A stretch of 64,000 nucleotides of DNA from Escherichia coli (GTDB lineage Bacteria; Pseudomonadota; Gammaproteobacteria; Enterobacterales; Enterobacteriaceae). The stretch lies in the NCBI RefSeq assembly GCF_024223415.1, contig NZ_CP100500.1. One strand, 5' to 3'. Shown one piece after another: positions 2,516 to 36,018 of this stretch (within the stretch, counting starts at the first letter, position 1; each line of letters starts with the position of its first letter). A model generated the notes under the pieces. The model was not told the DNA's origin. It saw only the letters and a program-made list of their open reading frames with translations, and did no database searches. Position numbers and translations under genes: made by a program.

Positions 2516-2525
2516 GGAGTAATCA

Positions 2526-5545: not shown

Positions 5546-5555
5546 GGAGGGAAAC

Positions 5556-6722: not shown

Positions 6723-6724
6723 TA

Positions 6725-6994: not shown

Positions 6995-7021
6995 TCAGCA
7001 CAACCGGAGAAATCATAAAAT

Positions 7022-7552: not shown

Positions 7553-7649
7553 ACACACCACGTTAATTATTTAATAAAAACATTTTCTTTTTTATTCCGG
7601 CGTCAGCGCCGCGGGCTTCTGCACGCCGGAAACAGAGGAGAATTAAATC

Positions 7650-8113: not shown

Positions 8114-8122
8114 GGGTGCGGC

Positions 8123-8419: not shown

Positions 8420-8433
8420 CCGGGAGGCATTCA

Positions 8434-8556
8434 ATGGCTGACATACTCAGGGAAATCACCGCATGGACACTGATTCTTACTGGTCTGGCGACATGCCTCA
8501 GTGCGGGAGCAGCCCTGGCTGCCCTGCTGATGCACATAACAACACAGTGGTTATGA
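8434..8556 (+). CDS. small hydrophobic peptide (40 aa, one predicted TM helix)
   Basis: not in supplied track (<60 aa); GGGAGG RBS about 7 nt upstream of ATG; hand-counted coordinates. Confidence 0.3.
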   Translation: MADILREITAWTLILTGLATCLSAGAALAALLMHITTQWL

Positions 8557-8645
8557 GAAAAGCTTAAAGCAGCATACAGCCTGAAAGAGCTGTCCGACGC
8601 TGTCCGGGCATGGAAACGGCAGAAAAATACCGGAGATACAGAACA

Positions 8646-9329: not shown

Positions 9330-9556
9330 TGACGTTATCAGGTAACAGCCGGAAATTAAAAGCCTGCCGAATATCTGCCAGATACCTTTTTGCCCGCGCC
9401 TTTTTTAAGAACGTCAGGCCGGGGATCACAATTGGTGTTATTGCCGGACGCGAACAGGTTGAAAAATACATGTCAGGTGCATGGTGGAATAAAGACCCTG
9501 TCATTGCTGCCCGTAATATTCATATCAGTTGGGGAGATATTCAGAATGACTGCTGA
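9326..9556 (+). CDS. hypothetical protein (76 aa)
   Basis: GGAGG RBS; overlaps neighbours head-to-tail. Confidence 0.35.
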   Translation: MMTLSGNSRKLKACRISARYLFARAFFKNVRPGITIGVIAGREQVEKYMSGAWWNKDPVIAARNIHISWGDIQNDC

Positions 9557-9761
9557 ATCTGTTGTATGTGCCCTGTTCTGGTATTGTTTTGTCGGTTGGT
9601 GTACTGCTGAACTGCACCGCCGTTCAGGGTTTTATTCACGTTACAGTGGTGCCGGTTACTGGATTAGCTGGTCGGTGATGTTCCTGTGCTGGCCTGTGGC
9701 ATTTCCTTTATATGTCGATTATATCGGTGATGCAGGCAGAAGGAGCAACGATGATGACTAA
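9546..9761 (+). CDS. small Trp/Cys-rich membrane protein (71 aa)
   Basis: track ORF 9390..9761 trimmed to ATG 9546; hydrophobic. Confidence 0.35.
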   Translation: MTAESVVCALFWYCFVGWCTAELHRRSGFYSRYSGAGYWISWSVMFLCWPVAFPLYVDYIGDAGRRSNDDD

Positions 9762-10203
9762 ACAACGTCTTATCCAGCTTATCCATATTGCCCGTAATGA
9801 ACTGGGTATGGATGAAGACACCTACCGCCAGATGTTACAGGGGCTGACCGGTAAAGCCTCAACCAAAGGAATGGATACCACACAACTAAACTGCGTGCTG
9901 GAATCCATGAAAAGGAAAGGCTTTCGCGTTAAGCCTGCCGGAAAAGCCAGCTCCGGTTTACCGCTGGATAACCATCCGCAGTCCAGGAAAATCCGTGCGC
10001 TATGGCTTGAAATGGCTGCTGCCGGCATTGTTCGTGACCGTTCAGAAAATGCATTAGCGCGGTGGATCAAGCGGGAAACGGGCATCAGCGCCCTGCGCTG
10101 GCTCAATACTGAACAGGCAAGCAGTGTTATTGAGAAACTGAAGAAGTGGCAGCACAGAGCTGCGGGAGTAAAACATGAGCGACCTGAATCAGTTTCGAAG
10201 TAA
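9751..10203 (+). CDS. gemA: GemA-like protein (Mu GemA family)
   Basis: N-terminal KQRLIQLIHIARNELGMDEDTYRQML pattern; positioned directly upstream of mor as in Mu. Confidence 0.75.
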   Translation: MMTKQRLIQLIHIARNELGMDEDTYRQMLQGLTGKASTKGMDTTQLNCVLESMKRKGFRVKPAGKASSGLPLDNHPQSRKIRALWLEMAAAGIVRDRSENALARWIKRETGISALRWLNTEQASSVIEKLKKWQHRAAGVKHERPESVSK

Positions 10204-10573
10204 AGGGCCGGAACTCCTGGTGGAGCTGGCACAGCATACCTCTGAGACCGTTCGCGAGATTATTGATATTGAGCCCGCAATTGCCGACCAGATTGGTCAG
10301 GCCGTCGCGAACCGAATGATGCAGGTCTGGGGCGGGCAAAACGTTTATTTCCCGATGGGCATGGTATGGAAGGTCAGTCAGCGCGACCGGGAAATCTTCA
10401 GGGAGTTTAACGGACGCAACCACCACGAACTGGCCCGCAAGTTTGGTGTTTCGCTTCAGTGGGTCTACAGCGTGGTTAAGCGGGTCAGAAAAGAAGAACT
10501 GGATCGGATGCAGGGCAGGTTGTTTGATGAAGATCTGCCAGAGGAGACGAAAGACGTTAACAAATCCAGATAA
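10175..10573 (+). CDS. mor: Mor-family transcriptional activator (Mu middle operon regulator)
   Basis: 132 aa; C-terminal HTH REIFREFNGRNHHELARKFGVSLQWVYSVVKR typical of Mor/C family. Confidence 0.85.
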   Translation: MSDLNQFRSKGPELLVELAQHTSETVREIIDIEPAIADQIGQAVANRMMQVWGGQNVYFPMGMVWKVSQRDREIFREFNGRNHHELARKFGVSLQWVYSVVKRVRKEELDRMQGRLFDEDLPEETKDVNKSR

Positions 10574-10618
10574 TTCCTGCTTGTTAAAGTCCTTTCAAAA
10601 ATCTCCTTATTGTATAAA

Positions 10619-10649
10619 AGCACGGTAGACCCCGTACCGTGCTTTTTTT
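10619..10649 (+). terminator. rho-independent terminator downstream of mor
   Basis: GC-rich hairpin AGCACGGTA...TACCGTGCT followed by a run of 7 T. Confidence 0.5.
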
Positions 10650-10687
10650 ATGCTCTCTCTTTAGTATTCAGGATGCAGGGAGAAAAT

Positions 10688-11320
10688 ATGTTTGACGTTT
10701 CGTTGTTAAATCTGCCATGGGCAACACTGGTGACCCTGACCAGTGGCTATATTGGGTATTTTATTGCGAATGTGGGACTGAAGGATCACCACAAGCCCAT
10801 TGAGGTGACTTTTTCTTCGCTGATTTTTGGCCTGACAGCAATGATGGCTTACCAGGCTGTTATGTGGGCAGGTCTGAATGCCTGGCTGGCAACACCACCA
10901 GCACTTCTGTGTGCCGTTACATGCGGTGCGTGGTGGCGCAGGTACGGTCGCAAATGGATGTACAGATTACTGTGGAATAATGATATTTCATGGTCTGACG
11001 ATACCAGCTCAGCATGGCAGGCAATGTTTGATCAAACAGGCTTCAGCGTTACCGAGGTCAGAGTGATTCTTCGCGATGGTTCCGGTATGATGTCACGGCT
11101 GCCAGGGAACTTTGAACAGTGGCCTAACGGTCCGTTTACCCTGGGGAATAAAGGCGATATGGTTCTTTACGTCACGCACAGCAGCCCTTCAGGCAGTAAC
11201 GAATGGGAAGAGTATAAAGGCGTGGTTGATAAGTACTGGGGAGCTCTGGCAACCTATATTCCAGCAGATCAGATTGCCAGAGTGGAGATCAGGCGCGTTC
11301 GTGCAACGAACGATGAATGA
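10688..11320 (+). CDS. membrane protein (210 aa), N-terminal TM helices plus soluble C-terminal domain
   Basis: track ORF 10610..11320 trimmed to ATG 10688 (GGGAGAA RBS) because the upstream part overlaps the mor terminator. Confidence 0.5.
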   Translation: MFDVSLLNLPWATLVTLTSGYIGYFIANVGLKDHHKPIEVTFSSLIFGLTAMMAYQAVMWAGLNAWLATPPALLCAVTCGAWWRRYGRKWMYRLLWNNDISWSDDTSSAWQAMFDQTGFSVTEVRVILRDGSGMMSRLPGNFEQWPNGPFTLGNKGDMVLYVTHSSPSGSNEWEEYKGVVDKYWGALATYIPADQIARVEIRRVRATNDE

Positions 11321-11670
11321 TGTTTATTTTTTCCCTGGGGCAGGGGCTGCCGGCATAGTGGTTTTATTGGCAGAGGAAGACGATTCTCCTTTTCTACCGG
11401 AATCGCGCTCGAACGTCACGATGTGCTTGCTTTTGGGATTTTCTGAGTAATCCAGGCTATCATGCTTATTGTTTTGAGTAGTCATTGGAATCATCCTTTT
11501 TGTTGCGGGTCATGTTTCAGCAAACTCGATTCTAAGTTGCCAGGAAGGATGATTTCAATGCCCGACTTATCTATCGTATAGCGGAAAAGAATTTCAGTTC
11601 TGTTCACCAGAACCCATGTTAACCCACTCCAATTCGTTATTTATCTCACGGATCCCCCTTCATTTATCTC

Positions 11671-12012
11671 ATGTCTGATCAGGTGCGTAAGCTCTCTGGC
11701 GGCAACCAGCAGAAAGTTATCCTCGCGCGCTGCATGGCGCTCAATCCACGGGTGTTGATTGTCGATGAGCCGACGCGTGGCATCGACGTTGGAACCAAAT
11801 CGGAAGTGCACCAGGTGTTGTTTGATATGGCGAAAAAGGGCGTGGCGGTGATCGTGATCTCCTCCGATCTGCTTGAAGTGATGGCGGTGTCTGACCGGAT
11901 CATCACCCTTAGTGAAGGCCGGTTAACTGGCGAGATCCACGGTGACGACGCTAACGAAGAACGGCTGATGACGATGATGGCTATCAACCACAACGCCCTG
12001 AACGCGGCATAA
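11671..12012 (+). pseudogene. 5'-truncated sugar ABC transporter ATP-binding protein (C-terminal ~113 aa only)
   Basis: LSGGNQQK signature, Walker B LIVDEPTRGIDV; the N-terminal ~390 aa expected for a RbsA-like two-domain ATPase are missing. Confidence 0.8.
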
Positions 12013-18588: not shown

Positions 18589-19494
18589 CTATATTTCCAG
18601 ACACCTGTTATCACTTAACCCATTACTGGCTTGCTGCCGTAGATATTCCCGTGGCGAGCGATAACCCAGTGCACTATGCGGATGCCATTCGTTATAATGC
18701 TCGAACGCCTCTGCAAGGTTCTTTGCTGCCGTTAACCCGTCTGGTTTGGGCATGACACTGATGTAGTCACGCTTTATCGTTTTCACGAAGCTCTCTGCTA
18801 TGCCGTTACTCTCCGGACTCCGCACCGCCGTGCTCTTCGGTTCAAGCCCCAACATCCGGGCAAACTGCCGTGTTTCATTAGCCCGGTAGCATGAACCATT
18901 ATCCGTCAGCCACTCTACTGGAGACGCCGGAAGCTCGTTGCCGAAGCGGCGTTCCACCGCTCCTGGCATGACGTCCTGTACTGTTTCACTGTTGAAGCCG
19001 CCCGTAGTGACCGCCCAGTGCAGTGCCTCACGGTCACAGCAGTCCAGCGCGAACGTGACTCGCAGTTTTTCTCCGTTATCACAGCGGAACTCGAACCCGT
19101 CAGAGCACCATCGCTGATTACTTTCTTTCACAGCCACTCTGCCTGTATGTGCCCGTTTCGATGGCGGTACAGCAGGTTTTCGCTCAAGCAACAGCGCATT
19201 CTGGCGCATGATCCGGTAAACACGTTTGGCATTGATCGCAGGCATACCATCAAGTTCGGCCTGTCTGCGAAGCAGCGCCCATACCCGACGATAACCATAC
19301 GTGGGCAGCTCTCCGATAACATGGTGTATACGGAGAAGCACATCCGTATCATCAGTGTGACGACTGCGGCGGCCATCCATCCAGTCATCGGTTCGTCTGA
19401 GAATGACGTGCAACTGCGCACGCGACACCCGGAGACAACGGCTGACTAAGCTTACTCCCCATCCCCGGGCAATAAGGGCGCGTGCGCTATCCAC
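18589..19494 (-). CDS. insD: IS2 transposase ORFB (InsD)
   Basis: 301 aa DDE transposase, IS3 family. Confidence 0.9.
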
Positions 19495-19817
19495 TTTTTT
19501 GCCCGTCCATATTCAACGGCTTCTTTGAGGAGTTCATTTTCCATCGTTTTCTTGCCGAGCAGGCGCTGGAGTTCTTTAATCTGCTTCATGGCGGCAGCAA
19601 GTTCAGAGGCAGGAACAACCTGTTCTCCGGCGGCGACAGCAGTAAGACTTCCTTCCTGGTATTGCTTACGCCAGAGAAATAACTGGCTGGCTGCTACACC
19701 ATGTTGCCGGGCAACGAGGGAGACCGTCATCCCCGGTTCAAAGCTCTGCTGAACAATTGCGATCTTTTCCTGTGTGGTAAGCCGTCTGCGTTTCTCCGGT
19801 CCTAAGACATCAATCAT
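19452..19817 (-). CDS. insC: IS2 ORFA (InsC)
   Basis: track ORF trimmed to [12 protein letters not shown] start; 121 aa HTH protein. Confidence 0.85.
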
Positions 19818-20030
19818 CTGCTCTCCAATGACTAGTCTAAAAACTAGTATTAAGACTATCACTTAAATAAGTGATACTGGTTGTCTGGAGATTCAGGGGG
19901 CCAGTCTAGAGATATAAAGAGCGTCTAGCTCCGGATATATCTTTGACACTACGACAGTACTTGCAAAACGGGGTTGGTAATGCTGCCAACTTACTGATTT
20001 AGTGTATGATGGTGATTTTAAGGTGCTTGC

Positions 20031-20306
20031 GTGGCTTCCATTTCCATCAGATGTCCTTCCTGCTCCGCTACTGAAGGCGTGGTGCGTAACGGCAAAAGCA
20101 CTGCCGGACATCAGCGCTATCTCTGCTCTCATTGCCGTAAAACATGGCAACTACAGTTCACTTACACCGCCTCTCAGCCCGGTACGCACCAGAAAATCAT
20201 TGATATGGCCATGAATGGCGTCGGATGTCGCGCCAGTGCACGCATTATGGGCGTTGGCCTCAACACGGTTTTACGTCACTTAAAAAACTCAGGCCGCAGT
20301 CGGTAA
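20031..20306 (+). CDS. insA: IS1 InsA
   Basis: 91 aa, GTG start, CPSC...CSHC zinc finger. Confidence 0.9.
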
Positions 20307-20728
20307 CCTCGCGCATACAACCGGGCAGTGATGTGATTGTCTGCGCTGAAATGGACGAACAGTGGGGCTACGTCGGTGCTAAATCACGTCAGCGCTGGCT
20401 GTTTTACGCGTATGACAGGATACGGAGGACGGTTATGGCGCACGTATTCGGTGAACGCACTCTGGCCACACTGGAGCGTCTTCTGAGCCTGCTGTCGGCC
20501 TTTGACGTGGTGATATGGATGACGGATGGCTGGCCACTGTATGAATCCCGCCTGAAGGGAAAGCTGCACGTAATCAGCAAGCGATATACGCAGCGAATTG
20601 AGCGGCATAACCTGAATCTGAGGCAGCACCTGGCACGGCTGGGACGGAAGTCGCTGTCGTTCTCAAAATCGGTGGAGCTGCATGACAAAGTCATCGGGCA
20701 TTATCTGAACATAAAACACTATCAATAA
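20225..20728 (+). CDS. insB: IS1 InsB (expressed as InsAB' by frameshift)
   Basis: 167 aa; matches IS1 InsB. Confidence 0.9.
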
Positions 20729-20745: not shown

Positions 20746-21432
20746 GAACGAGTACAGGAAAAATTCAGTTCTTTTTTAATTGCCTTTAAAGATGGTGTCA
20801 TCGGAGGGATACTGTCAGGTATTACCACAACGCTGTTAAATATATTCCTGACGACGGAAAGAATGATTGTCCGGCTTATCAGGGAAATGTGGAACAACCT
20901 CGTTCAGGCCTTTAAAGTCCTGGTATTTAACCCGGAGGGATTATCGCCGGGGCAGTTAGCCAAAGCGGTCACTAAACTGATAGCAGCAGGTGTGGCTGTT
21001 GCCGGTGGGGTGATGATAAATGAGGCGATGGCGCAGATCCTTATTTTTCCATTTGGTTCAGAGCTTGCTGCCTTTTGTGGTGCGCTGACGACAGGTATTC
21101 TCGGGCTGGTGATGAATTATTATCTCGAATATAGCGAGGTTATGCAGCGGGTATGGGCATTTCTGGACAAATTTAAGGACAAATTCCAGCGGTCACTGGA
21201 ATACTTTCAGGCAGTCAATGCTGAACTTGATCGCTATCTTGTGGAACTTACTGCACTGGAATTTTCTGTTGATGCTGCCGCGTTAAATCATTTTTCACTT
21301 CATCTGGATAGCGTAAACAGTGAGATAGAGCGCGGACTTCTGCTGAGAGAAGAAGTCAGCCGACGAGGGATTGCGTTGCCGTTTGAGTCAGGAAATGTGG
21401 CTTCTGTTCGTGACTGGTTAAATAAGCGATGA
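20746..21432 (+). pseudogene. 5'-truncated ORF of unknown protein, interrupted by IS1
   Basis: reading frame is open from inside the IS1 right end through to the stop at 21432; first ATG only at 20863. Confidence 0.4.
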
Positions 21433-22032: not shown

Positions 22033-22166
22033 CGTTCCTGTTTACGCCGTTACATTTGTGGCGGCGGATGATACCTGTTTTATGATTATTCAGAAAAATG
22101 TATTTACCTGTCACGGCATGTTCAGCGAGCGGCGCCGGACAGAAATATCGCTTTTACTCAATTATT

Positions 22167-23771
22167 ATGAAAATTAATCTTCCATTCATACACTGGCCAC
22201 GGATTAGCAATGATAAGCGCCTCGTGTTATCAGTGGTTGTCTTTATCCTTTTTAATCTCCTTGTATCCTCAGGAGCGCATCTGATTTACCGGATATTATT
22301 CTTTATCCTGGCGCTTCTTATTATTAAGGCAATGAAATCGCTTACGTTGCGTTTGATTCTTGCCTTCCCGTTCACATTACTGACTGCTGCAGATATCAGT
22401 ATCAGCCTGTATTCATGGTGTACATTTGGCACAACATTTAATGATGGTTTTGCAATCAGTATCCTTCAGACAGATCCTGATGAAGTAATAAGAATGTTCA
22501 GGATGTATGTTGTTTATGTTATCGCATTTATTATCCTCTTTTTATTGTTCTTCTGTTCAGCAATAAATAAAACGTCCTCATTGCCATCGGAAAAGGTCAC
22601 GGTAATTACATTTTTATTGTTAATTACAGTAACGTTATATTCTTCCTTCCAGTTTGCGTTGAAGAAACAGTATCAAATAAATGAAGTTGATCCTTACATA
22701 GTCGCTTCCCGGTTTGCCACATATACCTCTTTCTTTAATCTGAACTATTTTGCACTGGCCGCAAAGGAGCATCAGAGATTAATGACGATTGCTGATACCA
22801 TACCTCACTACGATCTGGTGATTACGGATAACAACACTGACGTATTTGTTCTGGTGATTGGTGAATCTGCAAGGACTGATAACATGTCCATTTACGGGTA
22901 TTCGCGCCCTACCACACCAGAGCTTCAGAAACAGAAATCACGACTGAAACTGTTCACTCAGGCAATCAGCGGGGCACCTTATACCGCTCTTGCGGTACCG
23001 CTGGCATTATCTGCTGATACCGTGCTGCATCATGATGTTCGCCGTTACCCCGATAATATTATCAACATGGCGAATCAGGCGGGGTTCGATACCTGGTGGC
23101 TCAGTGCGCAGTCCGCTTTCCGACAGAACGGAACGGCTGTGGCCAGTATCGCCATGCGGGCCAGAAACAGAATTTATGTCAGAGGCTATGATGAATTACT
23201 GCTCCCACACCTGGCTGAAGCACTGAACAGTAATCCGGGGAGCAGGAAACTGATTGTTCTGCATCTGACGGGCAGCCATGAGCCAGTCTGCAGTAACTGG
23301 CCCAGAGATAAAGCCGTGTTTAAACCGCTGGATACAGAAGAAGTCTGCTACGATAATTCCATTCATTATACCGACAGTTTGTTGGGACAGGTTTTCACCA
23401 TGCTGGAAACGCGTCAGGCATCCGTCATGTATTTTTCAGATCATGGCCTGGAGTATGACCCGACAAAAGAGCATGCCTATTTTCATGGCGGAATAAAACC
23501 CAGCCAGCAGGCTTATCATGTTCCGATGTTTATCTGGTACAGCCCGGCACTGGGAGAGCATGTCGATCGCCAGACGGTGAACAGCGTTTTTTCCACTGCG
23601 TATAATGATTATCTGATTAATGCATGGATGGGCGTAACCAGACCGGCTCAACCGAAAACGCCGGAGGAGGTGATTACCCGCTGGCAGGGGAAATCCGTGG
23701 TTTTTGATGCCAGTCATAACGTGTTTGATTACAAAGTATTACGAAAGAACTTTAATGAACTCCAGGAATAA
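22167..23771 (+). CDS. phosphoethanolamine transferase-like membrane protein (EptA/OpgE-type sulfatase domain)
   Basis: about 5 N-terminal TM helices plus sulfatase-like domain (VIGESARTDNMSIYGYSRPTTP, LHLTGSHEP); start chosen at MKINLPF, alternative 22098. Confidence 0.7.
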   Translation: MKINLPFIHWPRISNDKRLVLSVVVFILFNLLVSSGAHLIYRILFFILALLIIKAMKSLTLRLILAFPFTLLTAADISISLYSWCTFGTTFNDGFAISILQTDPDEVIRMFRMYVVYVIAFIILFLLFFCSAINKTSSLPSEKVTVITFLLLITVTLYSSFQFALKKQYQINEVDPYIVASRFATYTSFFNLNYFALAAKEHQRLMTIADTIPHYDLVITDNNTDVFVLVIGESARTDNMSIYGYSRPTTPELQKQKSRLKLFTQAISGAPYTALAVPLALSADTVLHHDVRRYPDNIINMANQAGFDTWWLSAQSAFRQNGTAVASIAMRARNRIYVRGYDELLLPHLAEALNSNPGSRKLIVLHLTGSHEPVCSNWPRDKAVFKPLDTEEVCYDNSIHYTDSLLGQVFTMLETRQASVMYFSDHGLEYDPTKEHAYFHGGIKPSQQAYHVPMFIWYSPALGEHVDRQTVNSVFSTAYNDYLINAWMGVTRPAQPKTPEEVITRWQGKSVVFDASHNVFDYKVLRKNFNELQE

Positions 23772-23867
23772 TTCATTAAAGTAATTTACTTCGCTATCCT
23801 TTTTCCAGTTACTCACAAAGAAAAATATTCAGAAAATAATTCCCGGGTTGGCAGCCCGGGATGATTA

Positions 23868-24143
23868 CTATTTTAATGGATTGTTAATCTTTGCATATTC
23901 AAACGGGCTGATACATTGTTCTCTGTTCGCATCCAGAAAATCTGCCCACCACTGTAGCATCAGTCGACGTTCTTCCAGATGTTCTGCTTTATGGATATAC
24001 GCAGCACGTACACCATTACGCTCCTGATGACTCATCTGACGTTCCACTGCATCGCGGGACCACAAACCTGATTTAATCAATGCACTGCACGCCATCGCCC
24101 GGAATCCATGGCCACAGACCTCTTCCTGCGTATTGTATCTCAT
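23868..24143 (-). pseudogene. 3' remnant of a P4-family tyrosine integrase (C-terminal ~90 aa only)
   Basis: GHGFR...RAAYIH...MLQWWADFLD aligns with the C-terminus of the intact integrase at 27068..28252; 5' two-thirds absent. Confidence 0.75.
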
Positions 24144-24451
24144 CAGTCTCAGTGCGTTATTGACCGTATTTTAACTAACGAGCTTGTGCCTGATTACCAA
24201 TAATTATCAGTTCATATTTTATGCAGACTTGTGCCAATCACTTGTTTTGAAAGAGGTTCTAAGATTCGTTGCATGCATTCTTGACCCTCAATGGTAATGT
24301 CTCGTTAAATATGATAGATATTAGCCGTAATTTTATTTTAGCGGGGTCGGTAAATTGGGGTGGAATTAGTCGATAAAAATATTAGAATACACTATTTTGC
24401 AGGCAAAATAGTGATATGATACATTTTTGTGTAAATTTATAAGGAGATAAG

Positions 24452-25375
24452 ATGGATAAGTTAAGGGCGCTAATTAGCCGAGCATCTAAGCTTTATAACA
24501 GGAATATAGATCATCTTCCAATAACTTTAGAACTAATCGAGTATTCAATGGGGCTTTTGGATAAGAAAGCAAGTTACGGTTATTTTGGTTCATTTGAAGG
24601 GAAAAAAGAAATAGACTACTATGCATTCTTTAGTAATAACGAGATCTCAAGACCTATTAGAGATGATTTATATATCAGAGATGTAAGTATCTATAAGAAA
24701 TTAAGTGACAACTTGTTTGTCGATTTAAAACAGTTCCGTTCTGTCTGGAGTTCAGATAAATCAATAGTAGCAAATAAAATTATATATACATCAGTTATGT
24801 CAGTTGCCTGCGCTTTTGATTTGTGGAAGAAAGGTAGTAGAAAAACACCTGGTACATTTTTTGAGATTTATATTGCTGCTCTATTGAAAGTAATGCTTCC
24901 GAATGAAGTTTTTTCAAAGCATATCCCATTGATTGATTCGATGAAAAATGATGAGGGGCTTAGAGATTCGGCGAATATTTCTACTGATCTGGTAATAAAA
25001 AGCCGCGCAAATGTTAATCGCGGAGTAGTTATCCCATTAAAAATAACAACAAGAGAGCGTATTGTTCAGCCATTTGCTCATCAACGAATTCTGGATTCAT
25101 ATTTTGGGAATGGTTTTTTTCATTCTTTCTTGGCATGCATTAGTGAAACTCAACAAGATAAGTTTAATCGAGAAGTAAACCATATATGTGTTCCTGGAAC
25201 AATACGATTGTATCAGAAATATTTATCAAGTATTGCGGGAATATATTATTGTGATATTCCAGAGAGATATTTACAAGCTGATTTGACCAGTATAATACCG
25301 GTCAAATCAATGGGGGAGTTTTTGTCAGATATAAATGATTTTTTTATGGAAATAGCTGAATCTGATCCTCATTAG
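24452..25375 (+). CDS. unknown 307-aa protein convergent with the C5-methyltransferase; putative Type II restriction endonuclease
   Basis: strong RBS (TAAGGAGATAAG); very AT-rich; 3' end overlaps the MTase 3' end by 32 bp; no nuclease motif recognised by eye. Confidence 0.45.
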   Translation: MDKLRALISRASKLYNRNIDHLPITLELIEYSMGLLDKKASYGYFGSFEGKKEIDYYAFFSNNEISRPIRDDLYIRDVSIYKKLSDNLFVDLKQFRSVWSSDKSIVANKIIYTSVMSVACAFDLWKKGSRKTPGTFFEIYIAALLKVMLPNEVFSKHIPLIDSMKNDEGLRDSANISTDLVIKSRANVNRGVVIPLKITTRERIVQPFAHQRILDSYFGNGFFHSFLACISETQQDKFNREVNHICVPGTIRLYQKYLSSIAGIYYCDIPERYLQADLTSIIPVKSMGEFLSDINDFFMEIAESDPH

Positions 25376-26468
25376 TCTTCTCAACAGGGTTTTGATAGTT
25401 GCTTTTTTCATAATTTTGTTTATTAAGACATTTAATAATTGCTGTTCCTGCCGCTTTAGCTACTGGCGGCGGAACAGCATTCCCAATTTGTAATCTTATG
25501 GCATCTCTTTTACCATAAAACCGATAGTCAACAGGGAATCCTTGTAACATTGCACCCTCTCTAAGAGTTATAGCTCTGTTCTGAGAAGGATGTCCATATC
25601 TGCCTCTGGTGAAGCTATCAAATCCCGCAGTAATTGTTGGACATTGTTTATCCCATTCAAGCCTCCCGTACACGTCAGGCCATCCGCCGGAGTTAGTATC
25701 AACATTTTGATGGCATTTTAGTCTCAAATCATGCGGAATATCCTTCCACCCCCCTCCGGGGGGAACATAAGAGAACCTTTCTTCATTAAGTTTAGTTATT
25801 TTACACTTAATATGATTAGGTATCTCGCAATGTTCACTATAATCGTCAGGAGGGGGAGGAAGATTACCAATAACATCTTTGATAGTAAGTTCGTTATCAA
25901 CTTTCTCCAGTTTAGGATAATCGCAGTTCTCAGATTTATCTATTCCGATCATAATAAAGCGCCCTCTCTTCTGGGCAACGCCAAAATCTGAAGAGCAAAT
26001 GAAAAAAGTGAATATGTTATATTTAAATAATTTCTCTTTTACTTCTCTTATTAAATCCTGTCCTCTCTTTTGTCCAAAAATTTCGACATTTTCAAACAGA
26101 AAAGCCCGGGGGTTTAGCTCATTTACCAGTCTGGAATATTCCAGTACTAACTTATTTCTTTCATCATTTAACAGATGAGCTCCTTTTCTTTGTTTGGAAA
26201 AGCCCTGACATGGCGGCCCGCCGCTAAAAAGATCCAGTCGGGAGTTTATTCCCGCTTTGTCTAAAAGAAACTTACCGCTAATAACCGAAGCATCTAATTG
26301 AAGACAATGCCCTCCAAGATTATTATTATATGTTTTCACGGCATCCTCATTGATATCAAATGCTAATTTGATATCGAACCCCGCTTGCTTAAGCCCAAGG
26401 GACATTCCTCCAGCACCACAGAAGCCTTCAATGCATGTAAGTTTTTGAACAGTATCAGCTTTACTCAT
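25344..26468 (-). CDS. DNA cytosine-5 methyltransferase
   Basis: motif I FCGAGG, motif IV PPCQGFS, motif VI ENV, motif VIII QKRGRF, motif X GNAVPPP. Confidence 0.9.
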   Translation of the reverse strand: MSKADTVQKLTCIEGFCGAGGMSLGLKQAGFDIKLAFDINEDAVKTYNNNLGGHCLQLDASVISGKFLLDKAGINSRLDLFSGGPPCQGFSKQRKGAHLLNDERNKLVLEYSRLVNELNPRAFLFENVEIFGQKRGQDLIREVKEKLFKYNIFTFFICSSDFGVAQKRGRFIMIGIDKSENCDYPKLEKVDNELTIKDVIGNLPPPPDDYSEHCEIPNHIKCKITKLNEERFSYVPPGGGWKDIPHDLRLKCHQNVDTNSGGWPDVYGRLEWDKQCPTITAGFDSFTRGRYGHPSQNRAITLREGAMLQGFPVDYRFYGKRDAIRLQIGNAVPPPVAKAAGTAIIKCLNKQNYEKSNYQNPVEKTNEDQIQLFP

Positions 26469-27067
26469 GTTAACTCACTTAATGCTCATTAATCTTCCTA
26501 GTATAACGATATTTATCAAACAAAACCATAGCTACATTTTAAACTAAAAGTAGCTAATAAGAACGATTGAATGACTTAATTTATATAAATAAGATATCCA
26601 GTATTGATACATCATGTGTTCAGCATGATGTATGTGCAACTGAAGCATCATTCGAAGTTTTCCTCAATATTCATATTCTGCATATATGCTATTCCAGATA
26701 ACTGGCCTGCCATTCGATATTATGACGAAGCCTGATTATGCTAATGCATCATACGCTATAACCCGGTATTTATGGCCACAGATATTTTGGATTGTGTCAT
26801 CTCCTGTAACCTTAAGGGGGGGATTGACGGTGTTTTATCTGCTTGCCCTGTGAGTACATGCATTTCCATAACATTCAGGCTATTTTCACCTACCGGAATC
26901 TGAAGTTCAGTCAGTATGCCTGCAACCTGTTTATGGTGTTGAACAGGGTTCAATAGCAGAATTTGGGCTTCTGGAGTGAGTTCAGAATGTGTTGGTAAAT
27001 CAAGCCACAATAAAACCGTTCAGTGGTCTGACTGGATGGCTCGTTATTATATCCACAGAGCTCTCAT

Positions 27068-28252
27068 TTATAGTGCGCACCTGGAGAGCGAATCAATGTA
27101 ATCTGCGTACCATTGCATCATTTCACGACGACCATCCAGGTACTGCGCATGGTTATAGGTACCCCTGATGGAATTTTTATCCACATGAGCTAACTGCATT
27201 TCAATCCAGGCAGAATTAAAGCCCTGTTCGTGCAGAATGGTACTCATGGTGTGACGAAAACCATGACCGGTTGCCCTGCCATCGTAACCGATACGTTTGA
27301 GCACCATATTGATGCTGGCTTCGCTCATTGGCTTGTTGATATCACAACGTCCCGGAAAAACCAGCCGGTATTGCCCGGAGAAAGTTTTGAGCTGCAGCAG
27401 AATGTCAGTGGCCTGTCGTGACAGTGGTACGACATGTTTACGTCGCATTTTCATGCGGCTTTCAGGGATTGTCCACAGGGCATTATCAAAATCAATTTCT
27501 GACCATTCAGCGAACCGTAGCTCAATGGTTCTGAGACCTGTCAGAAGCAGAAGATTTGTCGCCATGCGGGTAACAGGACTGCCATGATATTCAGCGAGCT
27601 TCCGGATAAAAGCTGGGAGCTCATCTGCTCTCAGGTGAGGGAAATGCGCCGCTTTTGGTGCCGCCAGTGTACTGGTCAGTTCAGATGCCGGATTGACAGT
27701 GGCTCGTCCGGTGGCGATGGCATAACGAAAAATCTGATTACAGTATTGGCGTACCTTACGAAGTTTCTCCAGCGAGCCACGTTTTTCTATGCGGCGCAGA
27801 ATTTCCAGCATTTCCAGCGGGAGGATATCAGTAACGCTTCGTTTGCCCAGATACGGAAAAATATCTTTATCCAGAGCCTCCAGTACGCTTCTGGCGTAAC
27901 TTTCAGACCATGACAAAGATTTATGCTGGTGCCATTCCGTAGCGAGGGCATGGAACGTATTGGTGGCAGAGATTTTCTGAGTGAGTTTTTCCTTTCGCTT
28001 CTTTTCGCCCGGGTCACCACCTTCGGAGATGATTTTTCGGGCATCGTCGCGTTTGATTCTGGCCTCAGCAAGGGAGACGTCGGGATAGACGCCGAGGGCC
28101 AGTTTTTTCTCTTTTCCTGCTATCCGGTATTTAAGCCGCCAGTAGCGGGCTCCCGTGGTTTTTACCAGCAGATATAAACCACGTTCGTCAGAGAGTTTAT
28201 AGTCTTTTTCTTTAGGTCTGGCTGTTTCGACCTGTCTGGCTGTAAGTGCCAT
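27068..28252 (-). CDS. P4-family tyrosine integrase (site-specific recombinase)
   Basis: 394 aa from MALTARQVETA; C-terminal HGFRHT...Y catalytic region; adjacent to tRNA-Phe 3' end. Confidence 0.9.
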   Translation of the reverse strand: MALTARQVETARPKEKDYKLSDERGLYLLVKTTGARYWRLKYRIAGKEKKLALGVYPDVSLAEARIKRDDARKIISEGGDPGEKKRKEKLTQKISATNTFHALATEWHQHKSLSWSESYARSVLEALDKDIFPYLGKRSVTDILPLEMLEILRRIEKRGSLEKLRKVRQYCNQIFRYAIATGRATVNPASELTSTLAAPKAAHFPHLRADELPAFIRKLAEYHGSPVTRMATNLLLLTGLRTIELRFAEWSEIDFDNALWTIPESRMKMRRKHVVPLSRQATDILLQLKTFSGQYRLVFPGRCDINKPMSEASINMVLKRIGYDGRATGHGFRHTMSTILHEQGFNSAWIEMQLAHVDKNSIRGTYNHAQYLDGRREMMQWYADYIDSLSRCAL

Positions 28253-28320
28253 ATGGGGGCTCCTGAAACTGACTGAACACAATGAGCCCCCACCGGTGCC
28301 CCCAATGAACGCTTGATTGA

Positions 28321-28410
28321 GAGAGAGTTCAGTAGAGTTCGGTGGAGTTCAGGATGTTCAGATTGCTTGTAACGATGTGATTATACTTGAGTTTCGTGGA
28401 GTTCGGGAGA
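28321..28410. repeat. cluster of 4-5 direct GAGTTC(A/G)G repeats between integrase and tRNA (possible arm-type recombinase-binding sites)
   Basis: GAGTTCAG, GAGTTCGG, GAGTTCAGG, GAGTTCGGG within about 90 bp. Confidence 0.4.
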
Positions 28411-28428
28411 TGAATCTGGAAGTGAAAG

Positions 28429-28504
28429 TGGTGCCCGGACTCGGAATCGAACCAAGGACACGGGGATTTTCAATCCCCTGCTCTACCGACTGAGCTATCC
28501 GGGC
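28429..28504 (-). tRNA. pheV: tRNA-Phe (anticodon GAA)
   Basis: reverse complement reads GCCCGGATAGCTCAGTCGGTAGAGCAGGGGATTGAAAATCCCCGTGTCCTTGGTTCGATTCCGAGTCCGGGCACCA, 76 nt with CCA end; flanked by yqgA-speC. Confidence 0.95.
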
Positions 28505-28609
28505 AACGGGGCGAATTAAACCTGATTCGCCTCGTCTCGTCAATCAAATTTCTTCAATTTACTGCAGACTGCACAATCTATCATCACTTTGCCGCTATTG
28601 CACGCATTG

Positions 28610-29317
28610 TCAGGCAAACCAGGCGGTCCAGGCGGCGGAAAGCGGCATTGCCAGAAGGAGTGCTGGAAGCATGTTGACCACCGGGAACATTTTAATGCCA
28701 CAGATGCGTAATCCGGTTGCCAGCAGCAATAAACCGCCTACGGCGCTGAAGTCTGCCATCATCGACGGTGTGGTCAGCGGTAATATCAGCGCGGCAGCCC
28801 ACGCCAGCGTTAACTGGATGATCAGTAATGGGATACTAATCACCGATACCGCAATACCCAGCGAGCAGGCGAAGATCATCGCCGTAAAGAAATCAAGAAA
28901 TGACTTGGCGATTAAAATACTCGGATCGCCGGTCATCCCTTCGTTCATCGCCCCGAAGATCCCGGTGCCGCTGGCGCAAAACAGGACAATAATCGCGACA
29001 TAATTCTGAATAAAAGATTCATGCGCTGGCTTCTTACGTGAGTGACGAAACAGATTTTGTGCTTTGGCGACCGCTGTATTGACGCCTTTCTCCAGCAGAC
29101 AAATTTCGCCGATTAATGCTCCGAGTAAGGTTGCTAAAACCATCGCTGGAAGGTTGGCGCATTTCACCACCAGTAAAATACCAATCCCCAGCGATGCCAG
29201 ACCAAAAATTGATGTCATGGAGACGCGGATACGTTCCGGTAAGCGTTGGCTAAGCAGTGCACCGAGCATGCCACCCAGTAATATTGCACTTGCGTTGATA
29301 AAAGGGCCGATGACCAC
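28610..29317 (-). CDS. yqgA: DUF554-family inner-membrane protein YqgA
   Basis: 235 aa polytopic membrane protein; conserved position next to pheV. Confidence 0.85.
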   Translation of the reverse strand: MVIGPFINASAILLGGMLGALLSQRLPERIRVSMTSIFGLASLGIGILLVVKCANLPAMVLATLLGALIGEICLLEKGVNTAVAKAQNLFRHSRKKPAHESFIQNYVAIIVLFCASGTGIFGAMNEGMTGDPSILIAKSFLDFFTAMIFACSLGIAVSVISIPLLIIQLTLAWAAALILPLTTPSMMADFSAVGGLLLLATGLRICGIKMFPVVNMLPALLLAMPLSAAWTAWFA

Positions 29318-29715
29318 AAGAGTTCCTGTTAACTGTATTGTTTGATTTTCTTATTATGAACTTTTTGCCTTGTTGATGGCTTGTCTGGTCGCAAAGTCCT
29401 GGCTTGCACGTCTTAGCGAAAGGTGCCATGATTGCGCGAATTTTCTCCTCTCTGTACGGAGTTTGCCCGATGCACGCCATCTCCTTACATTCTCTCGCTT
29501 ATCGCCGTTTCGCGCGAAACCCTTCTCTTTTTATGCTACTGCTCATGCGGTGAAGTTAACGCACGTTCACTGCAGGACAACAGTAAAATCAGAGCGTTTC
29601 TGCTTTTACTGATGTCTGGCGGTCGGAGCTGGTGACCAGTTTGACCCATATCTCATGGGGCAGGGTTTTACACCTTGTCCGGTATTCTTACTTCCCCGAA
29701 ACGGGTTTTGCGCTT

Positions 29716-31851
29716 ATGAAATCAATGAATATTGCCGCCAGTAGTGAACTGGTATCCCGACTTTCTACTCATCGCCGCGTGGTGGCGTTGGGAGATACTG
29801 ATTTTACGGACGTCGCGGCAGTCGTCATTACCGCTGCGGATAGTCGCAGTGGCATTCTTACGTTGCTTAAGCGCACCGGTTTTCATCTACCGGTGTTTTT
29901 GTATTCCGAACATGCTGTTGAATTACCTGCGGGCGTTACGGCGGTAATCAACGGCAACGAGCAGCATTGGCTGGAGCTGGAATCCGCAGCCTGTCAGTAT
30001 GAAGAGAATTTGCTGCCACCGTTTTATGACACGCTGACGCAGTACGTTGAGATGGGCAACAGCACCTTTGCTTGCCCTGGGCATCAACATGGTGCGTTTT
30101 TTAAAAAGCATCCTGCCGGACGCCATTTTTACGATTTCTTTGGTGAGAACGTCTTTCGCGCCGATATGTGTAACGCTGACGTAAAATTGGGCGATCTGCT
30201 TATTCATGAAGGATCGGCGAAAGATGCGCAGAAATTCGCAGCCAAAGTCTTTCATGCCGATAAAACCTATTTTGTACTGAACGGCACATCGGCAGCGAAT
30301 AAAGTGGTGACGAATGCGCTGTTAACGCGTGGCGATCTGGTGCTCTTCGACCGTAACAACCATAAGTCGAATCATCACGGCGCGCTGATTCAGGCGGGGG
30401 CGACGCCGGTCTATCTGGAAGCTTCACGCAACCCGTTTGGTTTCATTGGCGGTATTGATGCGCACTGTTTTAATGAAGAGTATCTGCGCCAGCAAATTCG
30501 CGACGTTGCGCCAGAAAAAGCCGACCTGCCGCGCCCGTTTCGCCTGGCGATTATTCAGCTGGGAACCTATGACGGCACTGTCTATAACGCCCGTCAGGTG
30601 ATCGATACCATTGGGCACCTGTGTGATTACATTCTGTTTGATTCCGCGTGGGTCGGTTACGAACAGTTTATCCCGATGATGGCGGATAGCTCGCCGCTGC
30701 TGTTAGAACTTAACGAAAACGATCCAGGGATCTTTGTGACTCAGTCGGTGCACAAACAGCAGGCGGGATTCTCACAGACGTCGCAGATCCATAAAAAAGA
30801 TAACCATATCCGCGGACAGGCGCGTTTTTGCCCGCATAAGCGATTGAATAACGCCTTTATGTTCCATGCTTCTACCAGCCCTTTCTATCCGCTGTTTGCT
30901 GCACTGGATGTTAACGCCAAAATTCATGAAGGGGAGAGTGGGCGTCGGCTGTGGGCTGAGTGCGTTGAGTTGGGTATTGAGTCGCGCAAGGCTATTCTTG
31001 CGCGCTGTAAGCTGTTCCGCCCGTTTATCCCGCCCGTTGTTGATGGCAAATTGTGGCAGGATTATCCGACATCAGTGTTAGCCAGCGACCGCCGTTTTTT
31101 CAGTTTTGAGCCGGGGGCGAAGTGGCACGGCTTTGAAGGATATGCCGCGGATCAGTATTTTGTTGATCCGTGCAAGCTGTTACTCACTACACCAGGTATC
31201 GATGCCGAAACCGGCGAATATAGCGACTTTGGCGTTCCGGCGACGATTCTGGCGCACTATCTGCGTGAGAACGGCATTGTGCCGGAGAAGTGCGATCTCA
31301 ACTCCATTCTGTTCTTATTAACTCCGGCGGAAAGCCACGAGAAGCTGGCACAACTGGTGGCGATGCTGGCGCAATTTGAACAGCATATTGAGGATGACTC
31401 GCCGCTGGCTGAGGTGTTGCCGAGCGTTTATAACAAATATCCGGTGCGCTATCGCGACTACACCCTGCGCCAGTTGTGTCAGGAGATGCACGATCTGTAT
31501 GTCAGTTTCGACGTCAAAGACCTACAAAAAGCGATGTTCCGCCAGCAGAGTTTCCCGTCAGTGGTGATGAACCCCCAGGATGCGCATAGCGCTTATATTC
31601 GCGGTGACGTGGAGTTGGTGCGGATTCGTGATGCCGAAGGGCGAATTGCGGCAGAAGGGGCGTTGCCTTATCCACCTGGCGTGCTTTGCGTGGTACCCGG
31701 GGAAGTCTGGGGTGGGGCGGTTCAACGTTATTTCCTTGCACTGGAAGAAGGGGTGAATTTGTTGCCGGGATTTTCGCCGGAGCTGCAAGGTGTTTATAGC
31801 GAAACCGATGCGGATGGCATGAAACGGTTGTACGGTTATGTGTTGAAGTAA
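29716..31851 (+). CDS. speC: ornithine decarboxylase (constitutive)
   Basis: 711 aa from MKSMNIAASS; fold-type I PLP decarboxylase. Confidence 0.95.
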   Translation: MKSMNIAASSELVSRLSTHRRVVALGDTDFTDVAAVVITAADSRSGILTLLKRTGFHLPVFLYSEHAVELPAGVTAVINGNEQHWLELESAACQYEENLLPPFYDTLTQYVEMGNSTFACPGHQHGAFFKKHPAGRHFYDFFGENVFRADMCNADVKLGDLLIHEGSAKDAQKFAAKVFHADKTYFVLNGTSAANKVVTNALLTRGDLVLFDRNNHKSNHHGALIQAGATPVYLEASRNPFGFIGGIDAHCFNEEYLRQQIRDVAPEKADLPRPFRLAIIQLGTYDGTVYNARQVIDTIGHLCDYILFDSAWVGYEQFIPMMADSSPLLLELNENDPGIFVTQSVHKQQAGFSQTSQIHKKDNHIRGQARFCPHKRLNNAFMFHASTSPFYPLFAALDVNAKIHEGESGRRLWAECVELGIESRKAILARCKLFRPFIPPVVDGKLWQDYPTSVLASDRRFFSFEPGAKWHGFEGYAADQYFVDPCKLLLTTPGIDAETGEYSDFGVPATILAHYLRENGIVPEKCDLNSILFLLTPAESHEKLAQLVAMLAQFEQHIEDDSPLAEVLPSVYNKYPVRYRDYTLRQLCQEMHDLYVSFDVKDLQKAMFRQQSFPSVVMNPQDAHSAYIRGDVELVRIRDAEGRIAAEGALPYPPGVLCVVPGEVWGGAVQRYFLALEEGVNLLPGFSPELQGVYSETDADGMKRLYGYVLK

Positions 31852-31861
31852 GAATAAAAAA

Positions 31862-31890
31862 AACGGGTCGCCTTCTGGCGACCCGTTTTT
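31862..31890. terminator. bidirectional rho-independent terminator between speC and nupG
   Basis: AACGGGTCGCC-TTCT-GGCGACCCGTT hairpin flanked by A-run and T-run. Confidence 0.6.
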
Positions 31891-31900
31891 CTTTGCGTAA

Positions 31901-33157
31901 TTAGTGGCTAACCGTCTGTGTACCTGTCGGGACACGAACGTGTTTATATTTGAACATCGCCATGAACGCGAAGGCCAGAACCACGGAGTAACCAGCGAAA
32001 ATCAACCATACGGTCTGCCAGTCGGTAATGCCGTTTTGGGTGTACATCTCAACAACTTTACCGCTCACGATGCCGCCGAGGATACAGCCGAAGCCGTTAG
32101 TCATCATCAGGAACATCCCTTGTGCACTGGCGCGAATTGCCGGGCTAACTTCTTTTTCGACAAACACCGAACCAGAGATGTTGAAGAAGTCGAATGCGCA
32201 ACCGTAAACGATCATCGACAGAACCAGCAGTACGGTGCCGAACGGAGTCGGGTCGCCGTAAGCAAACAGCGCAAAACGCAGGATCCACGCCACAATACTG
32301 ATCATCATTACGTTCTTAATACCGTAGCGGCTTAAGAAGAACGGGATGGTCAGAATGAACAGGGTTTCAGAGATCTGCGAAATCGACATGATGATTGACG
32401 CATGCTGCACAATAAAGCTGCTGGCAAACATCGGATCTTTGTCGAAGCTGTGCAGGAAGGTATTACCGAACATGTTGGTAATCTGCAGTTCCGCGCCCAG
32501 CAGCATTGAGAAGATGAAGAAGATTGCCATACGCTTGTTTTTAAACAGCGCGAATGCATCGAGGCCCAGCAGGGTTGTCCAGCTCTGATTCGCTTGCTGT
32601 TTAGCAACCGGAATATGCGGCAGAGTCAGGGTAAACAGAACCAGAATGGCGGAAAGTGCTGCGCCAATATACAGCTGCATGTGGCTTAATTCGAAGCCAG
32701 ACAGGCTCACCACCCACATTGCCATGATAAAGCCGATGGTGCCCCAGATACGGATTGGCGGGAAGTCAGTAACGATATCCATCCCGGCATTTTGCAGGCG
32801 ATAGTAAGAGATGGTGTTGATTAACCCAAGCGTTGGCATATAAGCAAACGAGTTAATCAATATCACAAGGAACATCGCTTCCGGCGTCGTGACCTGTGCC
32901 GCCATGAACAGCGTGATAGCGCCAATGGTGTGGCAAATGGCATATACCCATTTCGCACTTAACCATTTGTCGGCCACAATCCCCAGCAGCGCAGGCATAA
33001 AGACCGCGGCGATACCCAGTGAACTATAAACTGCGCCAATAGAAGCACCGTCAAACTTCAGGGTAACAAACATATAGGAGCCGAGGGTCGTCAGCCAACT
33101 TCCCCACAGACAGAACTGCAGAAAAGAGAGGATTTTCAGCTGCAGCTTAAGATTCAT
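31901..33157 (-). CDS. nupG: nucleoside:H+ symporter
   Basis: 418 aa MFS transporter from MNLKLQLKILSFLQF. Confidence 0.95.
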   Translation of the reverse strand: MNLKLQLKILSFLQFCLWGSWLTTLGSYMFVTLKFDGASIGAVYSSLGIAAVFMPALLGIVADKWLSAKWVYAICHTIGAITLFMAAQVTTPEAMFLVILINSFAYMPTLGLINTISYYRLQNAGMDIVTDFPPIRIWGTIGFIMAMWVVSLSGFELSHMQLYIGAALSAILVLFTLTLPHIPVAKQQANQSWTTLLGLDAFALFKNKRMAIFFIFSMLLGAELQITNMFGNTFLHSFDKDPMFASSFIVQHASIIMSISQISETLFILTIPFFLSRYGIKNVMMISIVAWILRFALFAYGDPTPFGTVLLVLSMIVYGCAFDFFNISGSVFVEKEVSPAIRASAQGMFLMMTNGFGCILGGIVSGKVVEMYTQNGITDWQTVWLIFAGYSVVLAFAFMAMFKYKHVRVPTGTQTVSH

Positions 33158-33358
33158 GTTAATTTCCTCACATCGTGATGCGGATGAGTGTTTGAAAAAG
33201 CACATTTGACCGTGCGAGATGATGGGATTCTATCAACTTCGCGGACTGGTTTTTTGTTACCTGTGGCAAATAATTGCAAACATTCCTAATTTGCAAAACG
33301 AAATTGTGATATGGATAACATTTTTGCCCCTGAGCATCGTCAGGGGCGGTTAGTGGAA

Positions 33359-34465
<1,107 letters not shown>

Positions 34466-34502
34466 TTATGCAAGCTGCCGGAGGCGTGCTCCGGCACTGT
34501 TT

Positions 34503-34781
<279 letters not shown>

Positions 34782-34805
34782 TCATCCTCTTTATCGACTC
34801 ACGCG

Positions 34806-35858
34806 CTAAACCGGCGCGCCAGTGCGTAACTGCTGTAACAAACGCTCCACGGGAGCCGCCAGGCCAACTGACGGCGGTTGCGCTAAGTTATACCAGAGCG
34901 CATTGCCTTCATCCATGCAGCCGGTGAATGACGACACGGGAAGCCACATAGGCACAATATCTAAGTGGAAATGGCTGAAGGTATGCCGAAACGCGGTCAG
35001 CTGCGTCAGGTTATCGGCAGCAATCTGCCGTTGCGCCAGCCACTGCCGCAAACTTTCTTCGTCGGCAAACTGCGGGAAACAGTATAAACCGCCCCACAAT
35101 CCGCTCGGCGGACGCTGCGCCAGCAATACTTCATCTTCGTGCTGTAACAGGAGAAAGTAGCCGGTGCGCTCCGGCAGCGTCTGTTTCGGTTTTTTGCCCG
35201 GATAAAGCGACCAGCTATTGTTGGTGGCGGCAATACATCCGTTTTGTAGCGGACAGAGCGAACATTTCGGCTTCGAACGCGTGCAAATCATCGCGCCCAA
35301 ATCCATCATCGCCTGATTAAACCGTTCCACGCCGACCGCGGGCGTCACCTGCTCGCTTAAACTCCATAATTTATTCTCGACCTCTTTTTTCCCAGGCCAG
35401 CCGCTTACAGCATAGCAGCGCGCCAGCACCCGTTTGACGTTACCGTCGAGAATCGGAAAGTGCTTACCCAGAGAAAGCGAGAGAATCGCGCCTGCGGTGG
35501 AACGCCCGACGCCCGGCAGTGCTGCAACTTCCTCAAAGGTTTCCGGGAATATACCGCCGTGTAAGGTCGCCACTTGTTGTGCCGCTTTATGCAGATTGCG
35601 CGCGCGGGCGTAATAGCCAAGCCCGGTCCACAAGTGGAGAACTTCGTCGAGCGGCGCATTGGCGAGATCGGTCACCGTCGGGAAGCGCGCCATAAAGCGT
35701 TCAAAATAGGGGATAACGGTCGCAACCTGAGTTTGTTGCAACATCACTTCTGAGAGCCATACTTTGTAGGGCGTCTTGTCAATTTGCCAGGGCAGAGTTT
35801 TTCGCCCGTATTTATCGTACCAGTCCAGAACCTGGGCTGAAAATTGCGACGCTTGCAT
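34806..35858 (-). CDS. mutY: adenine DNA glycosylase
   Basis: 350 aa from [14 protein letters not shown]; HhH-GPD and C-x6-C-x2-C-x5-C cluster. Confidence 0.95.
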
Positions 35859-36018
35859 GGTCACCGAATTCACTGTTGTTGGGGGCAAGATTGCAGCACA
35901 GCGACGGCAGGGTGTAAACCGGAACTTTCCGCAGCCACGGCCTTATCATGCTTGCATCCGGCAACTAACTTTGGATAATGCCCGTTTTCAGAACACTTTC
36001 ACAAGCGACTAAATCTTT

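Follow-up and report, generated by a model that had tools for sequence, protein, structure and literature searches.

Layered integrase remnants and a Kpn2I-like restriction-modification cassette at the pheV tRNA gene of Escherichia coli

The window considered here is the whole of a 64,000-nucleotide stretch of Escherichia coli DNA. It carries a single tRNA-Phe gene (anticodon GAA; 28429..28504, - strand), identified by ARAGORN, by Rfam and from annotated homologous loci. This gene is pheV, because the flanking genes yqgA (28610-29317, - strand) and speC (29632-31851, + strand) match annotated E. coli loci. A genomic island extends from the 3' end of the tRNA toward lower coordinates. An Rfam scan of 23500-28700 returned nothing beyond the tRNA. 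The older backbone of the island includes a phosphoethanolamine transferase gene (eptX; 22164..23771, + strand; NCBIfam NF028537, E = 2.7e-48), which is also annotated in UMNF18, MS8345 and KC-Dl-1. Farther from the tRNA, positions 1-11681, and probably the sequence to about 18000, are a Mu-like transposable prophage segment with genes for, among others, a DDE transposase, an ExeA/MuB-like protein and a DNA adenine methylase; several complete E. coli genomes have segments that match it at 99.2-99.4% identity. Also present are an IS3-family element with two overlapping transposase open reading frames (ORFs) and an IS1 copy (18589-19862 and 20031-20728; 20863-21432). The IS1 copy appears to have removed the 5' part of a 523-amino-acid island gene that is intact in MS8345 and in a draft E. 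coli genome (L018), leaving a 189-amino-acid ORF.

Convergent with eptX, and on the same strand as pheV, is an ORF of 91 amino acids (23868-24143, - strand). The preliminary description took this fragment for the 3' remnant of an integrase gene, and ORF alignment, NF007246, blastn and tblastn all bear this out. The ORF aligns to residues 338-398 of the intact integrase encoded at 27068-28252 (40% identity, E = 9e-14) and matches positions 335-398 of the 413 positions of the NCBIfam integrase domain NF007246 (E = 4.5e-13). An intact 420-amino-acid integrase gene adjoins pheV in many genomes, E. coli UMNF18 among them, and the DNA of the fragment shares ~94.7% identity with the 3' end of that gene. 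In a tblastn search, the UMNF18 integrase matched the fragment over residues 316-420 with 91% identity (E = 2e-62). Homology extends 33 nt past the ATG of the ORF, to position 24176, where megablast matches to E. coli integrases stop. Within this extension, an in-frame TAA at 24171-24173 is specific to the window and is lacking in other copies; upstream of the ATG the frame reads ...KLVS*NTVNNALRLMRYNTQEEVCGHGFR...

About 103-105 codons of the 420-codon integrase survive, so the remnant is somewhat longer than the ~90 codons given at the outset, and the lost 5' part (the first ~315 codons) amounts to about three-quarters of the gene rather than two-thirds; AT-rich foreign DNA does take its place, as had been proposed. 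To judge from these matches, 23868-24176 is the 3' leftover of the classic P4-type integrase of GI-pheV (intP4, of the CP4-57-like tyrosine integrase family). The stub retains the HxxR (GHGFR) motif and the catalytic tyrosine (RAAY). With only residues ~316-420 left, the arm-type DNA-binding N-terminal domain, the core-binding domain and the first catalytic arginine (box I) are gone. Loss of the arm-binding domain and of this arginine rules out recombinase activity by the stub itself. Just past its stop codon, between the stub and eptX, a pattern scan located a terminator-like, GC-rich hairpin followed by a run of T (23841..23861, - strand), and the alignment places the same hairpin downstream of the intact UMNF18 integrase. 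The 91-amino-acid ORF should be annotated as an integrase pseudogene fragment.

Could the ORF be retained because it does something itself, acting perhaps as a small regulator or as an integrase fragment that interferes? It is open in both allele types of the stub (91 and 92 amino acids), the terminator is retained, and short C-terminal integrase ORFs are numerous in public data. However, recent recombination with functional alleles accounts for the open frame, the N-terminal DNA-binding domains and first catalytic arginine are missing, the window copy has an upstream in-frame stop codon that other copies lack, and a pattern scan found no promoter-like site for the ORF. We consider such a function very improbable. 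Short C-terminal pieces (85-175 amino acids) of integrases of this family form many clusters in public protein sets, and the membership of some clusters exceeds 1,000. Part of these are partial sequences at contig ends, and the remainder suggest that 5'-truncated integrase stubs are common.

Beyond the stub lies an AT-rich spacer (24177..24451; 33% GC). Upstream (promoter) sequence of the gene that follows makes up its right ~70-90 nt. The spacer is shared with L018 and with a metagenome contig (L004); a copy of the adjoining genes in Escherichia albertii is homologous to it only over ~24380-24451, leaving the left ~190 nt outside this homology. A sensitive blastn search gave no match to the spacer in 5,426 complete E. 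coli genomes. The gene that follows (24452..25375, + strand; 307 amino acids) encodes a full-length, Kpn2I-like type II restriction endonuclease. The protein matches the PADLOC profile REase_II PDLC03502 from end to end (E = 6.5e-132) and, over residues 1-299, PDB entry 6EKR (E = 3.7e-126), which is Kpn2I (bioRxiv 10.1101/694703). It had no match in Pfam or NCBIfam, and a search of one genome per species found no relatives of it. We suggest that this ORF be named as a Kpn2I-like endonuclease. Convergent with the restriction gene, and overlapping it, is a gene for a DNA cytosine-5 methyltransferase (25344..26468, - strand; 374 amino acids; TIGR00675 dcm, E = 1.4e-42, above cut-off; PADLOC MTase_II, E = 3e-99). 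Its upstream region (26469..26588; 25% GC) is conserved with copies in Salmonella and E. albertii. No ORF for a controller (C) or helix-turn-helix (HTH) protein was found between 26469 and 27067. Together the two genes (24452-26468) form an entire Kpn2I-like type II restriction-modification (R-M) pair that has no C gene. What had been described as a methyltransferase module does contain a methyltransferase gene, and its endonuclease partner is present as well.

Between the methyltransferase gene and pheV are two further integrase sequences. The first, here int3', is a second and heavily decayed remnant (approximately 26589..27060, - strand; 41% GC). It is truncated at both ends and covers about residues 255-400 of a 420-amino-acid integrase. 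Three-frame translation places its homology in two reading frames with a frameshift and several stop codons. Its match to the UMNF18 integrase gene (int1) is 68.7% by blastn over window positions 26753-26932 (E = 1.7e-12; tblastn E = 4e-12), plasmid-borne integrase-like DNA matches the same stretch (E = 1e-16), and int3' is also present in L004 and L018. The second, int2, is an intact P4-type integrase gene (27068..28252, - strand; 394 amino acids; NF007246, E = 1e-92). It is only ~40-42% identical to the stub-type integrase int1, and shares 97-98% nucleotide identity with integrases that adjoin tRNA-Phe genes at pheU (A30) and pheV (MS8345). At its 3' end, other sequence stands in place of the 4-5 native codons with which the gene ends in MS8345 and A30 (...SLSRCAL* versus ...SLSRQESQG*; 3'-end alignment).

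Full-length int2 occurs in 526 of 5,426 complete E. coli genomes and is found at both pheU and pheV. Any match to int2 was obtained in 1,860 genomes, only 526 of which cover at least 80% of the gene. In a spread sample of the matches, its 3'-terminal ~180 nt (27081-27260) alone were matched in many records, at ~90-92% identity, inside integrases with other annotations. This conserved 3' segment, common to otherwise different integrases, could be a recombination substrate.

Reading outward from the tRNA, the order is pheV, int2, int3', the Kpn2I-like methyltransferase and restriction genes, the integrase stub, and then the old island backbone from eptX onward. The classic intP4 stub thus sits ~4.3 kb from pheV, behind int2, int3' and the R-M cassette. 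The stub, int2 and the tRNA-Phe gene are all on the - strand, as is int3', so the shared orientation of stub and intact integrase that was noted at first holds. There are three integrase layers downstream of pheV, and both of the older ones lack their tRNA-proximal 5' part. Three illegitimate junctions separate the layers, at 24176|24177 (J1), at ~26588 and at ~27075-27079 (J2, within the 3' end of int2).

This arrangement bears on the suggestion, in the preliminary description, that the module had been inserted into the integrase of an older island. The abrupt end of the stub at 24176, with foreign AT-rich DNA beyond it, is the form that insertion of a foreign block into the int1 gene would give. 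However, the missing 5' part is not found across the module: the 5' 315 codons of int1 are absent from 24177-28428, which holds only the C-terminal fragment of another integrase (int3') and int2, 42% identical to int1. Because int3' and the stub overlap in the same residues (~316-400, with only ~68% nucleotide identity), they are not two halves of one gene, and a simple insertion is excluded; we give it next to no probability. We also considered the flanking integrase fragments as the duplicated target of one insertion and rejected this, given the ~68% nucleotide identity and the fact that int3' is not nearer to the stub than to other integrases.

Relatives of the R-M cassette occur in other settings. 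In Kpn2I itself, from Klebsiella pneumoniae plasmids, a divergent C gene represses a strong methyltransferase promoter (Klimuk et al., 2018, PMC6237814). The window cassette resembles Kpn2I (PMC6237814; 6EKR) in its convergent restriction and m5C-methyltransferase genes and in the full-length alignment of the endonuclease. Relatives that are 59-64% identical are carried on ColE1-like plasmids of Yersinia, Pantoea and E. coli and have a divergent HTH (C) gene; of the copies compared, the plasmid ones alone carry an HTH_3 gene. Unlike Kpn2I and these plasmid copies, the window cassette is chromosomal and lacks a C gene, the C-gene position being occupied by an integrase remnant; in the coding regions it shares only ~73% nucleotide identity with those copies. 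An integrase 3' end stands where plasmid copies have the C gene in the chromosomal copies of E. coli, E. albertii and Salmonella.

Closest in organization are islands at leuX in Salmonella enterica and E. albertii (L005-L009). These carry the same cassette (endonuclease 79-83% identical in amino acids; DNA 84% identical in nucleotides) in the same order, integrase, methyltransferase, restriction enzyme, with the cassette beginning at the integrase 3' end. They differ in that the integrase is intact (420 amino acids), the tRNA gene is leuX, and the restriction side has no integrase stub. Window positions 24812-26590 align with positions 1-1786 of a Salmonella copy (L009) at 84% nucleotide identity, and the homology stops 5 nt from the integrase stop codon.

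The cassette might itself be mobile, a selfish unit that was inserted beside or into integrase genes and truncated them on both sides. The cassette is found on ColE1-like plasmids, in leuX islands and in tRNA-Phe islands, three unrelated settings, as such mobility would predict, and its boundaries hug both genes, ~120 nt upstream of the methyltransferase gene and 90-275 nt upstream of the restriction gene. Against this, the overlapping and ~68% identical integrase fragments on its two sides are not halves of one target, neither terminal repeats nor a target duplication were detected, and the restriction side of the E. albertii copy abuts other genes, with no integrase stub there. We regard an autonomously mobile cassette as improbable.

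The modules of the locus also occur alone: the int1 and eptX backbone, int2 at pheU or pheV, and the R-M cassette behind an intact integrase at leuX. The classic arrangement without the R-M unit is pheV-int1-eptX, as in UMNF18. With a gene for a tetratricopeptide-repeat (TPR) protein it is pheV-int1-TPR-eptX, the order in 1,355 complete genomes (e.g., KC-Dl-1). MS8345 has pheV-int2-TPR-eptX with no remnant and with different breakpoints, a clean exchange of int1 for int2. Searches of the 5,426 complete E. coli genomes (RefSeq) gave no copy of the R-M unit, and the far end of the composite island, with its att site, is thus unseen. The exact methyltransferase protein was found in 295 blocks of an assembly collection. 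At each of ten loci read among these, the order is tRNA-Phe, int2, ~600 nt, methyltransferase, restriction enzyme, (stub), TPR, and eptX onward. Six of the ten are at pheV and four at pheU, with the same spacing. Joined to the TPR gene, the unit is common among draft E. coli genomes at both sites; carriers include GCA_044153125.1 (pheV) and GCA_051127645.1 (pheU). The placement of the window copy at pheV was recognized from the start; the composite island is not specific to pheV, being found at pheU as well. In the composite islands (L018-L027) the sequence continues past eptX to a WYL-domain gene, and gene spacing is the same at pheV and pheU.

A five-way alignment of the window, L018, L004, UMNF18 and KC-Dl-1 divides the stub into two parts of different affinity. 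Over 23868-24119 (- strand; about residues 336-420 and the stop codon), nucleotide identity and protein matches assign the window to the resident UMNF18-type intP4 allele: it is 98.6-100% identical to UMNF18 int1 and only 86% identical to the L018/KC-Dl-1 type, the KC-Dl-1-like allele being the one carried by both L018 and L004. Over 24120-24176 (- strand; about residues 317-335) the window, L018 and L004 are identical or nearly so (54 of 57 positions to L018), with only 65-67% identity to either E. coli int1 allele. This second part, from a different integrase allele that we term intX, travels with the R-M unit and stops at J1. The window agrees with UMNF18 at 36 of the 37 informative sites left of 24115 and with L018 at 18 of the 19 beyond it (Fisher p = 1.7e-12). 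The switch point falls in the conserved stretch that encodes GHGFR. The alignment shows the stub to be a recombinant of two integrase alleles, in which the first 57 nt go with the R-M unit and the other 252 nt with the resident UMNF18-type allele. L018 in turn diverges from KC-Dl-1 in 24076-24119, a sign that another crossover may have taken place earlier, some dozens of bases from this one. A protein search for the full-length parent of the 57-nt intX part (motif MRYNTQEE) did not find it; the matches listed are all short C-terminal fragments.

The surrounding sequence shows the same contrast. The window and L018 are collinear over 23871-36000, with R-M genes that are 99.6-99.8% identical and a 3' part of the stub (23871-24119) that is only 87.6% identical. 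L004 matches the window over 23871-26726 at 97.5% identity, the junction at 24176 included. A segment of ~1.4 kb with the TPR gene, located between eptX and the stub in L018, L004 and most carriers, is missing from the window (23847-23871). The exact window-type stub is rare: it was found in five contigs, one of which shows the order methyltransferase, restriction enzyme, stub, eptX. We conclude that the last step giving the window arrangement is homologous recombination, not integration. Only from abundance do we infer the direction of the exchange, L018-type to window-type or the reverse. Within int2, 27 single-nucleotide differences from L018 cluster in ~510 nt (27212-27722), while the R-M genes are >99.6% identical and 28253-28504 is identical; the cluster looks like an allelic recombination patch.

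Site-specific integration would be expected to have left its mark in direct repeats of the tRNA-Phe 3' end, the old attachment sites. We searched for four tRNA-Phe 3'-end patterns (16-25 nt, with up to 3 mismatches) and for direct repeats in general. No second copy of the tRNA-Phe 3' end was found in the island, and a single extra match, at 53235, is at chance level and outside the island; none of these repeats survives within the 64-kb window. Nor did we find an intermediate with full-length int3 or intX beside the R-M cassette at a tRNA-Phe gene. With internal tRNA-Phe repeats absent, tandem site-specific integration is not directly evidenced. Of the two tandem integrations first proposed, more than one acquisition at the tRNA-Phe gene stands; the layers number three, and tandem integration itself is something that we infer rather than observe.

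The reading that fits best, to which we give a probability of about 0.55, is that the stub is the bottom layer of a series of three integrases produced by serial replacement and then homologous recombination. An island with int3 and the R-M cassette would have arrived first, at a tRNA-Phe gene that already held the classic island, and the int2 element would have come later. At each arrival, deletion or illegitimate recombination may have removed the internal att site and truncated the older integrase from its 5' side. In each round the R-M genes would have been spared because their loss was counter-selected. The composite block would then have spread among strains and between pheU and pheV. 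Finally, it may have recombined with a resident pheV-int1-eptX island through integrase homology, either in a double crossover or because homology between the int1' stub and int1 let a tandem array collapse, and the outcome would be the TPR-less arrangement with a chimeric stub.

A serious rival to tandem integration is construction by recombination only, with layers added solely by incoming linear DNA (transduction, conjugation or transformation). One crossover would lie in the tRNA-Phe gene or the core flank and the other would be an illegitimate or micro-homology join in the resident integrase, so that the tRNA-proximal part is replaced in one step. The absence of att scars is as this route predicts, and integrase genes do act as recombination substrates, as the chimeric stub, the 27212-27722 cluster in int2 and the exchange in MS8345 attest. 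Published work (PMC11537424) portrays GI-pheV as modular and as evolving by insertion, deletion and recombination. However, three independent illegitimate joins would be needed, all of them deleting 5' parts of integrases; intact P4-type integrases specific for tRNA-Phe exist and offer simpler entry; and site-specific integration easily explains the same island at both pheU and pheV. On balance we hold construction by recombination only to be somewhat unlikely.

Stacked islands with integrase remnants are familiar: tandem accretion of genomic islands at tRNA genes leaves integrase pseudogenes. The locus resembles such accretion in having several integrases or fragments in the same orientation downstream of one tRNA gene, the older ones inactivated. 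It differs in that internal att repeats, the defining feature, are absent and in that the last event is a homologous recombination inside a remnant. It also resembles GI-pheV, reported to be built of modules that turn over by insertion, deletion and recombination, with intP4 as the one gene that is conserved (Nhu et al., 2024, PLoS Genet, PMC11537424). Common to both are a P4-type integrase adjoining pheV in a tRNA-Phe island and, here as a stub, the classic intP4 type; unlike in GI-pheV as described there, classic intP4 is here a stub of ~103 codons and a different integrase adjoins pheV. In the portion of that text that was searched (PMC11537424), none of "truncated", "tandem" or "restriction" appears.

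In summary, the locus is a further case of a familiar kind and in itself ordinary, but it preserves well the traces of repeated replacement and recombination at a tRNA-Phe island. It offers a case, resolved to the nucleotide, of how such an island may be rebuilt, with new integrases displacing old ones while the R-M cassette survives each round. Its least usual feature is the role of a dead integrase stub, which provided the crossover site for moving the R-M cassette onto a different island backbone. A practical consequence is that island typing by intP4 allele would mis-type such genomes, because the gene adjoining pheV is not classic intP4. More tentatively, integrase 3' stubs and the stretch that encodes the catalytic box may be portable homology arms, through which a defence cassette next to an integrase, here the R-M pair without a C gene, could be copied by homologous recombination into any resident tRNA island that holds a related integrase; they could also collapse tandem arrays. 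We think this generalization unlikely on present evidence. If it were true, "dead" remnants would be the functional joints at which pheV, pheU and perhaps further tRNA islands trade defence genes.
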